Shown here: one piece after another, positions 53,630 to 58,512 of the stretch
Numbering within the stretch: the first letter of the stretch is position 1
How the letters are laid out: each line of letters starts with the position of its first letter
Source: Paramecium tetraurelia
Lineage: Eukaryota
Length of the DNA: 64,000 nucleotides
Direction of reading: 5' to 3'
Assembly: GCA_000165425.1 (NCBI GenBank)
Contig: CT867997.1
Location: forward strand, 186,001-250,000
The notes under the pieces: model-generated
Told to the model about the DNA's origin: nothing
What the model saw: the letters and a program-made list of their open reading frames with translations, nothing else
Databases searched by the model: none
Program-made: the position numbers and the translations under genes

Positions 53630-54679
53630 TCAATACATTTCTGTATTTTTAAAACTTGAATGTGTATGTTTGACTCTTTTTCTTGATTCTTTTTTTACAG
53701 GCATTTCGCAATTTTTGCATTCATCGCATTTACATAACTCTGAGCACTTAACCCCCATTTAATAACATTCGCAATATTTTTTTAAACAATTAGACTTTTT
53801 GCAATTACATCCTTTAAAATGTCTAGGTTTTTGATCAATTTCATCTTCAGAATTACTCTAATAATATAAATGATATTATACTCTAGATTCAACTTTTGGT
53901 CTAAATGCTTGTGGATTTCTTTCCATAATTTATTTGATAATATTTTCTCTTTCTTTTACATGATCTTCATTATTATGACAAGAACAACAGTTACAATCCT
54001 TTCCACATGGAACTCCAGCAGCGAAACAATCACAATATAATTTTAGGCATTTTGATTTTTTACAATTACAAACTATAATTTTAGGTTTCTATTCAGTCTA
54101 AGGTTTTCTTCGTTTTGAGCTGGTTCTCTTTCTATTGTTAACTTAATCACTTGTAAATTTGAGAGGTTTCTTGAGAGTAACAAAATTGATGAATTTCAAT
54201 TTTGTGGCTCTTTCCAATTTTCTGTGAGGGGATTTAGGGGGACTTCTAAATTACGAGTGAATTTCTTAATCATCAGAGAATATTTCTTCTTCATCACATA
54301 ATAGATCATCTGGAACCTTAAGAGAACTAAGCGGTGAACTAATATTGACAAGTCGTTGTTCTGTCTTAGAGTGATCGAAATTTATTTATCTTGCTGGTGA
54401 TATCACAAAGATATTAGCTTTTTTTGTCGTTTGGCGATTTAATGGGGAGTAAGGTTAGAATCTAGAATTTATTAAGAAAATAGAGTACTAATTGGGAGAC
54501 TTTAAGCATGGTGTAAACTCTAATTTCTTGCATACTTATTCAGGGGACTAGTCTTTTATATATATTTCATCTTGGTTATGAATGCAATCGGCATTAAAAA
54601 CTGGGGATTTATGAATTTTTTCTAATCTTTAAAACAATTTAGTAAATGGAGTTCCATCCTATATAAATTCTGAGCTCAT
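53630..54679 (-). CDS. Tesmin/TSO1-like CXC (CRC) domain protein, LIN54-like
   Basis: [17 protein letters not shown]...[10 protein letters not shown]...[20 protein letters not shown]. Confidence 0.93.
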
Positions 54680-55225
54680 TTGTTATATGAATTTTCCCTC
54701 TGAATTTAAATTCAAATTTTTATATATAAAATACCAAACAATTATTACCCGCATTTAGAGCGAAGAATCTAATAGAAAGCAGCGCCATTTAAAGGTAGTA
54801 GTGATTTGAATTACTAAATTTAAATTCTGTAGGTTTTTATATGAATTTTTCTCAGGATTAGTTTAAATGGTTGTTAGATAATGCAAAAATGATTTCCCGC
54901 ATTATTTTTGGTATTTGTGGCATTATTAATTTTGTTATAACTTGTTAATAAATTAAATTTATTAAAAACATAAATAAAATTTAACAATTTAATTTTCTTT
55001 GATTTTAGATAATAAGGAAATAATTAGATTGTGATTAATTCTCCTGATATTCATTATTAAATAATTGCAAAAATAAGACATTATAAGCTCAATTCAAGAT
55101 CTTTTGAAAACGAATACTAATTAATGCGAAGTGAGTTGAAAACTCGATTATATTAATAATATAAAGGGTGTGCATTAGTTAGTTATCAAATAAATTTATT
55201 TTAAATAATTTAAATAACCGAAGAT

Positions 55226-56756
55226 ATGGGTCATCTTTTTAGACATTAAGAAGGAGAAGCAGGTAATTATGTACTCGAAGTTGTAGCACCACCTCCTGCA
55301 ATAGCCAATATTCCAGCACCTCAAGCATCAACTATTGATTATGATTGGATTCTAATTTCAGGGTTCATTATAGTGTTGACCTAAGTGGGATTTGCATTTA
55401 TTGAAGCAGGATCAGTGAGATATAAGAATTCCTAATCAATAGTGATAAAAGTGATATTGGGTTTGTTCTTGACAATTTTAATATGGTGGTTGGTAAGAAA
55501 TAAACATAACAATATAGTTTGGATATGGATTCTCATTTGGATACGATTTCTAAACAAACTTTATGGGAGGCACAAAATTAGGAGGAGCTAATTGGGAAGC
55601 AAATCAATTCGGAAATGATTACACAAACTTTGGTATTTCTGTTAATATTCAAATTTTGTTTAGTATTCAGAGCATCAGGTGCAGCAATAGCCGTATCAGT
55701 GTTATCTGGAGCAGCAGCAGAAAGAATGACATTCTTGGCATGGTCAATTTTAGCTATAATATACGCAGGATTCATTTATGCTGGATTAGCACATTGGACA
55801 TTGGCATAAGGATGGTATAGATTCAATGAGAATATAAATAGGTTGACAACTTTGGGATACAAGGACTTCTCAGGAGCAGGTGTAGTATTTTTCGCAGCAG
55901 GTGTTGCTGGATTGGTTGTGACCGTGTTGTTGAAACCAAGAAGATTCAGATTTGATCCAAATACAACCTTATAATTCTAAAGACATTCTCCAATTTATAT
56001 TGCTTTTGGCTCAATTTTGGTCTTCGCAGGATGGTTATTCTACAATGGAGGTGTTGTTGCCTAAGGAGCTAATTCTAAATACACTTAAGGATTAGTCGCT
56101 GTCAACACATTGGTTGCTGGAGCTACTGGAGGATTCTTCGCTTTTATCATTAGATATTTCTAATATGAAACCACAAGTTTGGTCGCCTTGTCTAGAGGTA
56201 TTATCAGTGCATTGGTGGCTGTAAGTGCTGCTACTGATGATATGAAACCATGGACTGCATTCATCTATGGTCTTTTGGCTGCAGTATTTTACAGTGTTTT
56301 GGCTAAAGTCATTCCAAAAGTACATATTGATGACCCTGTAGAAGTTGTACCTGTGTTTTTGGTAGAATATTGTATAAATCATATAGGGCAATGGTTTCTT
56401 GGGAATCTTCTTGTCAGCATTCTTCGACACTAAAGCAGGTGTTTTCTATGGATTTGGGGCTAAATTATTAGGAATGTAATTGTTGGGATTATTGATCATT
56501 TTTGTATGGGTTGCCTTCTTCGTCTTGATTACATTACTTATTTTAAAGGGATTCGGAGTTCTTAGAATTGATTCAGAAACTGAGAGCGTTGGTATTGATA
56601 AGGCACATTGTAATTAAATGCAACTTATAATTAGGTTTGGGTGAAGCCATCGTATTTGCTAACTAAATTGATGAGGTTCCTCTAGTACCAAAGACCGAAT
56701 TGGTTAAATTAGGAAACAGCCAAATTGGATCAGGATTTAGACCTGGTTTTAGATGA
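55226..56756 (+). CDS. Ammonium transporter (Amt) family protein with non-canonical pore
   Basis: GFAFIEAGSVRYKN, GYGFSFG, SGAAAER, KDFSGAGVV, GWLFYNGG, IDDPV, LRIDSETESVGID; five tiny introns. Confidence 0.93.
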
Positions 56757-56863
56757 TATTATATCAATCATATAAATGAGCAATTTTATCAAAAAACTTC
56801 AATTTCTCTTTTCATATCCTATCAAGTATATTTATATCCTAATTTGTCAGATCTATAAATATT

Positions 56864-58512
56864 ATGTATAATTAAAGAATTTGGAACAAAGTAGACTAAT
56901 ACAAATCGAACCATACAAATGGACTACGTCTAAAGCTCTTAAAATCAAGCAAGAATACTCATTTTGTCTATGTACTATGCACAGAATATAATATAGTGCT
57001 ATTTAAAGTAACAAAACCTTTTATATAATAGGATGCCGATTACACGAAACCTTACAAATATTTACCAATAAACTTTGAATATAAGTTTCAAGTTTTAAGA
57101 ACTCCACCTTTACTTATAAACCCGTCGCTTTCTGATAAAAAAGGCGAAAATGTTGTATCTCTGGGAGAAATACTTGCTATAAGGTTCATTCGGGAAGACG
57201 TTGAAAAGTGGAGTGAATTTAGGGGATCAGTGAGTGATTTGGACTAATTGAGACAGTTTTTAGGGTTAAAAATGAACTAAATCGGATTCCATTAGTATTT
57301 CAAGGTGTACAAGAAAATAGGGAAAGGGAGTTTCGCTTCGGTTTATTTGGCTTAGAGAATAGAGGATGGAACAAAGATGGCTGTGAAAGCGTTCTGCAAG
57401 AATGCAGTTTATAAGGAAGAGAACGGAAAGGTAAGTATGAAAATAAACAAGTTAGGAAGGGTTAATTAATGAAATTCAAATAATGAGAATTCTAGATCAT
57501 CCAAACTTAATGAAACTGTATGAAGTTTATGAAACCAAAAATTCTATCTATATGTGTTTGGAATTACTAGAAGGAGATCAATTGTATGGACTATTCAAGA
57601 CGAAAAGGTCATTTACTGCTCAACAAATACATTCAATTATGAAAGGCTTGTTGGAAGGATTGAATTATATGCACAACAAGGGGATAATGCATAGAGATCT
57701 CAAACTAGAAAATATCCTATTCAAGGAACCAGAGTATGATAACCTTAATATACTTTAGTAATTGCGATTCCGTGGTGATAGCTGATTTTGGATTGGCCAC
57801 AAAGGTGGATTAAAAGCCATTTCTGTATACCAAATGTGGAACCCCTGGATTTGTTGCTCCGGAAGTTATCAATTTGAAGGATGACCAATTGTCTTATGGT
57901 TCCATCTGTGACGTATACTCCTTGGGAGTAATCTTATACATCTTGTCTACCGGACAACCGGTGTTCAAGGGCAAGAGTTATAATACTATTGTGAGGAGGA
58001 ATCGAGAAGCCATTGTGGATTTTCAAACTGAAAAACTTAGATAAGTATCCGATAATTAGAGAAGCTTATTGATTAAGATGCTCCAGGCAGACCCAGAATT
58101 AAGGATCACTTCGAAATAGGCATTGAAGCACGAATACTTTTGTGCTTATTATGAGGAGGAGTTCGCCTAGATGTATACTGATGATGATCCACACTTGGGG
58201 GAAATGCTTGTCAAGTTGAATGCAGAATATATTCGATTAGATATGGAAAAGTTAAAAAGAACGAATGATGAGGATGACATTTGCAAGACTGAGGATTTGA
58301 AGGTTGATTAGAGTCAGGAAAAGAACGATTTTCTTAAAATCATCATGAGAACCCCAGTCATCACTGGAAGAACCAAATCTATTGAAAGTATATTGTATCT
58401 TTATTTAGACTCTCCGCTCAATGGATTCCAGTCACCAAATCTAGACCCGAACACTCATCACATCTAACAAATTTAGACTAAGTGGATGAACCCTTTCGTT
58501 TTATAAAATTGA
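56864..58512 (+). CDS. Ser/Thr protein kinase (CAMK group) with N-terminal PH-like region
   Basis: IGKGSFASVY, AVK, HRDLKLEN, DFG, CGTPGFVAPE, DVYSLG all intact. Confidence 0.93.

Follow-up and report, generated by a model that had tools for sequence, protein, structure and literature searches.

An Amt-family gene of Paramecium tetraurelia with phenylalanine at both pore histidine positions: a possible pore-inactive subunit

The stretch of DNA analysed here, hereafter the window, comprises 64,000 nucleotides of the ciliate Paramecium tetraurelia (assembly GCA_000165425.1, contig CT867997.1, positions 186,001 to 250,000) and carries on its forward strand a gene of the Amt family of ammonium transporters, whose coding region (55226..56756) runs from the ATG at 55226 to the TGA at 56754-56756. 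An earlier note, made from the letters alone, had drawn attention to this gene because both conserved pore histidines (His) of the family are replaced by phenylalanine (Phe); the follow-up reported here finds the same residues in an expressed and conserved gene, and it is tentatively suggested that the product may be a pore-inactive subunit. The coding region consists of seven exons and six introns and encodes 457 amino acids under the ciliate code, with 12 in-frame TAA codons read as glutamine (Gln), all reassigned stops being TAA and none TAG. The G+C content of the window (21-35%), TAA as a sense codon and introns of 24-31 nucleotides of the form GTA..TAG are as in Paramecium. Residue for residue, the spliced product equals the P. 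tetraurelia protein CAK58404.1 (XP_001425802.1, GSPATT00004776001, UniProt A0BIN7; P0229 in the protein searches), which is publicly named only 'Ammonium transporter AmtB-like domain-containing protein'; by this identity the window is macronuclear DNA of P. tetraurelia. The frame that the earlier note had called intact is so over its 457 codons, with start and stop as claimed, but it is not one continuous open reading frame, being interrupted by the six short introns.

Transcription was followed in two stranded oligo-dT runs with the same species label, and in contigs from X17 and X18; X18 is recorded as RNA-Seq, and X17 is only guessed to be RNA, though it carries spliced forms. The reads outline a transcript at 55212..56780 on the forward strand, whose 5' ends pile up at two positions, 55212 and 55220, and whose 3' ends lie around 56769-56780; both untranslated regions are very short, since these read ends sit close to the ATG and the TGA. 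RNA depth is about 75-565 in the bins of 55222-56746, 37-55 in 56747-56807, and about 0 at 55100-55160 and at 56808-56900. Intron 1 (55263..55286; 24 nucleotides, in frame and stop-free) is seen as an exact 24-nucleotide deletion in contig X17 record 1, with no other letter changed, and is missing from P0229; at intron 2 (55493..55517; 25 nucleotides) the loose read ends at 55492 run on into the sequence of exon 3; and across intron 3 (55633..55663; 31 nucleotides) two runs have 86 and 56 reads, respectively, with a GT..AG joint between 55631 and 55663. Intron 4 (55815..55841; 27 nucleotides, in frame and without an in-frame stop) is missing from P0229 and from all annotated homologues, its splicing being seen only in reads with the synonymous variants of a close paralogue, whose loose ends before 55841 are exon-4-like. 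Intron 5 (56362..56386; 25 nucleotides), which follows immediately on VFL, where the second Phe is found, appears as an exact 25-nucleotide deletion with no other letter changed in contigs X17 record 7 and X18 record 14, and intron 6 (56610..56634; 25 nucleotides) is placed as in the identical gene model of P0229. The reads were also checked for His codons or a different splicing: both Phe codons are unaltered, with no other letter, in the contigs that cover them (X17 record 5 for F186; X17 record 7 and X18 record 14 for F342), and introns 1, 3 and 5 are seen spliced. The window gene is transcribed and correctly spliced.

Two other gene models were set aside. A version with four introns and 474 amino acids was replaced when annotated homologues revealed two more introns (55263-55286 and 55815-55841), which are easily missed by a reader because their lengths (24 and 27 nucleotides) are multiples of three, in frame and free of stops. 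Stop-free introns of such lengths are under-represented in Paramecium. Retention of these introns would add 8 and 9 residues, respectively, with the frame unbroken and no in-frame TGA. An alternative 5' splice site at 56353, which would remove V-F-L and with it the second Phe, is ruled out by the 25-nucleotide deletion in the contigs and by the presence of VFL in P0229.

The pore residues were read from a MAFFT alignment with E. coli AmtB (from NC_000913, mature-protein numbering) and 77 database matches, 69 of them from outside Paramecium, and from a separate profile alignment. At the sites Q104, F107, W148, D160, H168, W212, F215, S219 and H318, the order used for all residue patterns below, the window protein carries R104, G107, L148, D160, F168, W212, Y215, V219 and F318, that is, RGLDFWYVF where E. 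coli has QFWDHWFSH. Along the forward strand, codons R122 to G125 (55669..55680) correspond at their ends to Q104 and to F107, the outer gate Phe, which is also part of the ammonium-recruiting site S1; L166 (55801..55803) stands for W148, the cation-pi tryptophan of S1; D178 (55864..55866) is the retained D160; F186, a TTT codon at 55888..55890, takes the place of H168, the first pore His; Y237 to V241 (56041..56055) hold the counterparts of F215, the inner gate Phe, and of S219, the serine of S1; and F342, again TTT (56356..56358), replaces H318, the second pore His. All seven substitutions claimed in the earlier note from a manual alignment (Q104R, F107G, W148L, H168F, F215Y, S219V and H318F) are reproduced by both methods, and in the same alignments D160 and W212 are kept, as it had said. 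Pairwise HMMER alignments to the solved Sd-Amt1 likewise put F opposite both His ('atvvH' against 'agvvF'; 'vvpvHl' against 'vvpvFl'). The twin-His pair (F186, F342), the S1 site (L166, V241, G125) and the Phe gate (G125, Y237) of a canonical Amt are absent, while D160 and the C-terminal motif R384, E390, G393 and D395 are retained. In all 69 non-Paramecium matches of the first search Q104, F107, D160, H168, W212, F215 and H318 are present, with W148 and S219 in 67 of the 69 each, and both His are found in 384 of the 391 non-Paramecium domains of the final set. As judged from these alignments, the residue pattern of the window protein is far from chance.

Membership in the superfamily is indicated by both profile and fold. 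Three exon pieces match PF00909 with 28.7, 159 and 35.7 bits (7.3e-07, 2e-46 and 5.4e-09; cut-off 23.2), and no domain besides PF00909 was found by Pfam in the four exon pieces searched, which make up residues 1-418; the other 39 residues form a tail that is mostly modelled as disordered. The structure model that the earlier note had called for was built with AlphaFold2 (AF2) from a 148-row alignment and has the full Amt fold of 11 long helices, with a mean predicted local distance difference test score (pLDDT) of 87.9 and a predicted template modelling score of 0.86; in the ten-residue blocks containing the two Phe positions pLDDT is 98, and it falls below 50 at residues 440-442 and 444-457. 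The top Foldseek match is Af-Amt1 (2b2f), with a template modelling score by target of 0.94 and a root-mean-square deviation of 1.6 A, and on the same scale Amt chains score 0.87-0.94 as against 0.71-0.75 for Rh chains. By profile and modelled fold the window protein is a member of the Amt/Mep/Rh superfamily, of the Amt branch rather than Rh. The predicted cytoplasmic C-terminal region (56563..56756, forward strand, spanning intron 6) holds the motif R403, E409, G412 and D414, then GEA..F, and a disordered tail ending in GSGFRPGFR.

Several observations bear on whether the gene is maintained. In reads that map to it together with those of close paralogues (in X21, only 43% of the mapped reads, 4166 of 9669, are at least 99% alike, the remainder being close paralogues), the letter differences listed, the 40 with the most support out of 122, are without exception synonymous third-position changes; roughly 321 sites of the gene are synonymous and 1050 nonsynonymous. 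At one read end of a co-mapping paralogue, CAA stands in place of TAA of the window, a synonymous Gln codon under the ciliate code. Within its 90% cluster, the window protein shares 93-98% identity with full-length proteins of P. octaurelia, P. pentaurelia, P. primaurelia and P. sonneborni; its terminal branch in the tree is 0.0064, and DNA runs from many studies contain about 0.9 of the sampled words of the stretch. The gene is under purifying selection and not decaying. The earlier note had spoken of coordinated replacement without decay, and that description fits a gene which is transcribed and spliced, whose 40 listed differences are all synonymous, and whose pattern is fixed in many orthologues and paralogues.

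The distribution of the replacements was traced in protein databases. An exhaustive HMMER search of 1.84 billion representatives gave 9569 matches, and among the best 150 of these, which were inspected, both His are replaced in only three places: a P. octaurelia fragment with I/M at the two positions (P0079), a fragment 67% identical to the query with F/F (P0080), and P0116, a tandem Amt-Amt protein of 929 amino acids from a metagenome record. The N-terminal domain of P0116 is Y/F (YEWDYVFAF) and its C-terminal domain is fully canonical, so that it is a natural fusion of a His-less with a canonical Amt domain. In the final set, whose members are relatives of the queries and not a random sample, the 59 Paramecium rows divide into F/F (22), F/Y (14), H/H (21), N/H (1) and I/M (1), and the 391 non-Paramecium domains into H/H (384), H/N (3), Q/H (1), Y/F (1) and F/F (2), the last two being Paramecium-like fragments. 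Rare single variants of the twin-His pair also occur in Logan records (P0217, P0251, P0254 and P0083), with H318N accompanied by more changes (SYNDHRYCN) or H168Q (QFWDQWFSH). Proteins of 1548-2804 amino acids with two Amt domains each, mostly with Y for F107, were met as well (P0081, P0082, P0085, P0089, P0090, P0092, P0104, P0107, P0111, P0113, P0129 and P0143); P0081 stems from the transcriptome of the protist Artemidia motanka.

In an IQ-TREE phylogeny of 31 rows all Paramecium Amts form one clade (support 100/99), which splits into an H/H clade made up of clades C and D (100/100) and a His-altered clade (98/98). Within the latter P. bursaria (N/H) branches first, and clade B (F/F) is grouped with clade A (A1, F/F, to which the window gene belongs, and A2, F/Y) with support of 90/84, below the star threshold. 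The patterns are RGLDFWY[VI]F in A1, RGLDFWYVY in A2, KLNDFWIQF in B, [SQ]GQDH[IT]FAH in C and HAFDHQFLH in D; G107 is found in clade A, P. bursaria and clade C, L107 with I215 in clade B, and in P. octaurelia and P. tetraurelia the clade B proteins have K in place of R104. On this tree two state changes suffice, the first His being lost before the split of P. bursaria from the aurelia species and the second in the aurelia lineage. As far as the sequences compared go, the His-less state is that of a Paramecium-only clade whose sister Paramecium clade keeps H/H, and the loss took place within Paramecium, independently of Rh30. The earlier note had proposed a look at other Paramecium species and at Tetrahymena: the same residues are found in P. 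octaurelia, P. pentaurelia, P. primaurelia and P. sonneborni, and no clade member from a ciliate other than Paramecium was recovered among the best-listed matches of the protein searches. The closest named relatives outside Paramecium are from Chromera, Prymnesium and a sea spider, none of them a ciliate, and the best 120 listed matches of a search with a canonical alveolate Amt (Chromera, P0091) are all metazoan or unnamed, with no ciliate among them.

By protein searches only, at least 13 genes of the family were found in P. tetraurelia (three in A1 including the window gene, three in A2, two in B, three in C and two in D), of which 8 lack both His and 5 are H/H; none of the 13 has the full S1 site. 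The path between P. tetraurelia and P. sonneborni, as read from the tree, is about 0.07 in A1 against about 0.19 in the H/H clade C. The tail-end motif G[FYL]R[PS]GF[RK] is common to A1 and A2. One close paralogue, P0005 (GSPATT00003093001), is annotated with 448 amino acids and has a 37-residue stretch unlike its relatives in place of two transmembrane helices; since the co-mapping paralogue reads over this region show synonymous differences only and no small insertions or deletions, the odd stretch looks like an annotation or assembly error and not like a frameshifted pseudogene. The 90% cluster of clade B (P0008) also contains proteins of 364 amino acids, one of them named a WD40 protein, which is probably due to P0341 (P. 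pentaurelia, 791 amino acids) being annotated as an Amt fused with the neighbour gene. In the window itself no second Amt copy was found when the protein was compared with the 64 kilobases by tblastn. Upstream of the gene lies a divergent gene on the reverse strand (53630-55081) with two Tesmin/TSO1 CXC domains, the ATG of which is about 130 base pairs from the Amt transcript start, and downstream, about 90 base pairs past the Amt 3' end, begins a protein-kinase gene (56864-57472, forward strand).

The positions that have changed can be set against those that have not. Among 54 positions conserved to at least 85% in 275 non-Paramecium Amt domains, clade A keeps 37, which include glycines, D160, E121, R122, R185, D309, D310, R384, E390, G393 and D395, and changes 17, which include W148, A162, H168, L208, F215, A314 and H318. 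In A1, A2, B and P. bursaria, the lineages with altered His, 155 of 403 aligned columns (38.5%) are identical in all four, as compared with 2 of the 15 changed canonical positions and, among the mechanistic sites, 1 of 7 (R104), a count without statistical significance (binomial P of about 0.18 for 1 or fewer). Since these proportions fall below 38.5% while the scaffold and the coupling motif are fixed, the mechanism residues, once invariant, now appear free to vary within hydrophobic limits, which in these alignments looks like released constraint rather than a new precise site.

The canonical electrogenic NH4+ mechanism is very unlikely to operate in the window protein, since family knowledge indicates that two non-titratable Phe, with no cation site and no intact gate, would not sustain it. 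In the available text of PMC10794816 the canonical cycle relies on the S1 site, the Phe gate and the twin-His pair; with the cation site and the proton-taking His pair both gone, no cycle of recruitment, deprotonation and relay would be expected. Engineered proteins point in a similar direction: double His-to-Ala replacement in EcAmtB and ScMep2 abolishes growth on ammonium, while single replacements still support it (PMC3647058, section 11), and the H168F and H318F variants are reported to be ineffective in methylamine transport, their structure being altered in the side chain only (PMC3647058, introduction). Hydrophilic double His replacements, according to the available part of PMC9040831, result in a non-selective channel. 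It is therefore suggested, with some caution and at somewhat less than an even chance, that the window protein is a pore-inactive structural or regulatory subunit analogous to RhCE and RhD. Its pore would be sealed hydrophobically by Phe at both His positions, the protein would assemble into Amt-type trimers, alone or with His-containing Paramecium paralogues of clades C and D, and, by means of its tail and the conserved region at its C-terminus, it may be a structural or regulatory partner, as RhCE and RhD are beside RhAG; loss of conduction, trimer or heterotrimer formation and a regulatory role are all conjectural here. Five H/H paralogues in P. tetraurelia are possible partners in the same species. 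Moreover, in P. tetraurelia infected with Caedibacter exactly four ammonium-transporter genes are listed as down-regulated (text and Supplementary Table S2 of PMC5814942), namely the clade B F/F pair GSPATT00003263001 and 00004938001 and the clade D H/H pair 00023933001 and 00026626001, so that, all four being on that list, a His-less pair and a His-containing pair are co-regulated. The H/H paralogues, this joint down-regulation of B and D and the tandem protein P0116 give circumstantial support to a subunit.

A number of points weigh against a pore-inactive subunit. The co-regulation under Caedibacter involves clade B, and the window gene is not on the list. The H/H paralogues are themselves without the S1 site ([SQ]GQDH[IT]FAH and HAFDHQFLH), so that no fully canonical partner is present among the Paramecium genes found, and the whole Paramecium family, judged by its residues, may have shifted in function. 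A His-less majority (8 of 13), with A1 evolving more slowly than C, would be unusual for a mere accessory subunit. With both gate Phe exchanged for residues that are smaller or of another kind (clade A has G/Y and clade B has L/I), the pore could be opened instead of sealed, and the pore positions are strictly hydrophobic or aromatic (F, Y, I, M), as a gas conduit would also need. The figure of 1 in 7 for the mechanistic sites falls short of significance, as stated above, and the argument for the absence of decay is limited by the other 82 letter differences, which were not displayed, and by the 90% minimum of likeness set for reads, a filter that favours conserved sequence.

The earlier note had offered a gas, a neutral solute, an anion, a sensor or a regulatory subunit as functional alternatives; the analysis favours loss of the canonical NH4+ mechanism and argues against a sensor of the solved type. 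Some of the points just given would suit a His-free hydrophobic channel, a passive route for NH3 in its neutral form, or for CO2 or some other gas, which would need neither to recruit nor to deprotonate a cation and would help an ammonia-excreting heterotroph to release ammonia, for instance outward or to an acidified compartment. In its favour, every substitution in the pore is to a hydrophobic or aromatic residue, the outer gate Phe has been lost (G107 in A; L107 with I215 in B), the S1 site is lost family-wide, H/H clades included, which resembles Rh, where RhCG has no Amt-type site and an outer Phe that does not obstruct the pore (available text of PMC10794816), ammonium is the nitrogenous waste of P. 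bursaria (PMC12571070), and the gene has high expression, very strong conservation and multiple copies, with a His-less majority in the family and slow evolution. The Rh channels that conduct NH3 nevertheless retain the twin-His pair, as described in PMC10794816, double His-to-Ala AmtB and Mep2 fail in ammonium-dependent growth despite a hydrophobic pore (PMC3647058), and the mechanistic sites vary by subclade, which would be unexpected in a tuned conduit. Such a channel is the main alternative, somewhat less probable than the subunit. In its strongest form, in which the Amt scaffold has been rebuilt as a His-free, fully hydrophobic conduit that is the main route by which the cell releases NH3 or another gas, the proposal is unlikely; if true, it would be the first natural Amt working without twin-His, Phe gate and NH4+ site, and would mean that the twin-His pair is required for cation capture and proton handling and not for conduction itself. 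A receptor-independent response of Paramecium to NH4Cl is reported, and a link between it and such a conduit is a possibility.

It is improbable that the protein carries a different solute, such as an anion or a zwitterion drawn by the basic residue at 104 into an outer vestibule widened by F107G. Of the mechanistic sites, R104 alone is common to the four lineages with altered His, with K instead in the P. tetraurelia and P. octaurelia members of clade B, and G107 is kept in clade A, P. bursaria and clade C; however, an ion would meet nothing polar or charged along the central pore, which is hydrophobic throughout, the remainder of the vestibule differs from one subclade to another (L/N/F at 148; V/I/Q/S at 219), and no precedent in the family was met in the portions of the literature searched. 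A role as ammonium receptor, in which the protein would bind NH4+ and not move it, like a sensor Amt or transceptor of the Ks-Amt5, Sd-Amt1 or Mep2 type, is quite improbable, even though the most similar solved chains are Sd-Amt1 (8qj3, 8.2e-22) and Ks-Amt5 (6eu6, 3.8e-17), with Mep2 and AmtB ranking behind them, and the coupling motif at the C-terminus is retained. The solved sensors use the Trp/Ser, the Phe pair and the His pair to guide NH4+ to its pocket (PMC11152129, as far as its available text goes), all of which are lost here; these sensors keep all motifs and carry a fused transducer, which argues against a protein of that type, since the window protein has none, its 457 residues containing PF00909 alone, and signalling by Mep2 needs substrate translocation (PMC9040831, in part). 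Very improbable, in turn, is an ordinary ammonium transporter compensated elsewhere: it is a family member with D160 and the scaffold retained, and single-His variants can support growth on ammonium, but both His, both gate Phe and the Trp and Ser of S1 are all changed, and double-His variants fail in two systems (both statements on growth from PMC3647058, in part). That the gene is a decaying or recently inactivated copy, or an artefact of assembly or annotation, has next to no likelihood. Paramecium does hold many duplicates from genome duplications, and the paralogue P0005 is annotated with a garbled stretch; here, in contrast, the 457-codon frame is intact and transcribed, with several introns spliced, listed differences that are synonymous throughout, the same residues in four other Paramecium species and most sampled words recovered from the DNA runs of many studies. 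The pseudogene and artefact readings were rejected on these grounds.

The gene itself is already in public databases. In a literature search, with supplements of bioRxiv outside its reach, no paper came up that describes Amts without His as a clade, be it from Paramecium or from another ciliate, and none of those listed dealt with the twin-His pair and ciliates together. A search by gene identifiers found no paper. PMC4588038 does not mention ammonium. The twin-His pair is treated as a signature of the Amt/Mep/Rh pore, and its role in proton relay, selectivity or conduction is debated in the available parts of PMC10794816 and PMC9040831; the natural exceptions named in the literature found, as far as its text was available, are the His-to-Glu change of fungal Mep1/3 and the Rh30 proteins. 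The Paramecium clade represents an independent natural experiment in the Amt branch, in which a single genus offers a stepwise series of intact proteins, from H/H paralogues through N/H in P. bursaria to F/F, F/Y and I/M in the aurelia species. Such a series makes it testable what an Amt fold does without its mechanism residues and which residues serve what. Paramecium is a tractable organism for this, by RNA interference through feeding and by tagging with green fluorescent protein.

The pore-inactive subunit suggested here can be compared with several known systems. Engineered E. coli AmtB variants with H168F, H318F or H168A/H318A (PDB 2npd, 2now, 2npc and others) have the same positions changed to Phe or Ala with the fold unchanged; these point mutants keep S1 and the Phe gate, and the double F/F is not among the variants found in the available text of PMC3647058. 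In the window protein, unlike in them, many changes are co-adapted, and purifying selection has acted over a long time. In fungal Mep1 and Mep3, a natural Amt/Mep variant (PMC3647058 and PMC9040831, both in part), the first His is replaced by Glu, a position at which the window protein also varies; these proteins have one His only and an acidic residue, keep S1 and the Phe gate and, in the text available, still transport ammonium, whereas the window protein has two non-titratable Phe. Sd-Amt1 and Ks-Amt5, to which the window protein is closest in sequence among solved chains, are Amt modules binding NH4+ without translocating it (PMC11152129, available text), and have all pore motifs and fused HAMP-GGDEF or histidine-kinase modules, of which the window protein has neither. 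Nearer relatives are clades C and D (e.g., GSPATT00022258001 and GSPATT00023933001), which belong to the same Paramecium radiation, are also without F107, W148 and S219 and keep the C-terminal motif; they differ in keeping both His and F215, and are 36-40% identical to the window protein. A precedent is offered by RhCE and RhD, the Rh30 proteins of the Rh complex in human erythrocytes, which lack the twin-His pair, keep the fold and are abundant and conserved, and the window protein is likewise without twin-His and keeps the fold. RhCE and RhD descend in the Rh branch, and the window protein, by tree and Foldseek, in the Amt branch, so that it would be an analogue of Rh30 and not a member. The likeness has a further boundary in that the His-containing Paramecium paralogues are also without the S1 site, and the proposed heterotrimer would join a His-less subunit to partners that have kept both pore histidines.

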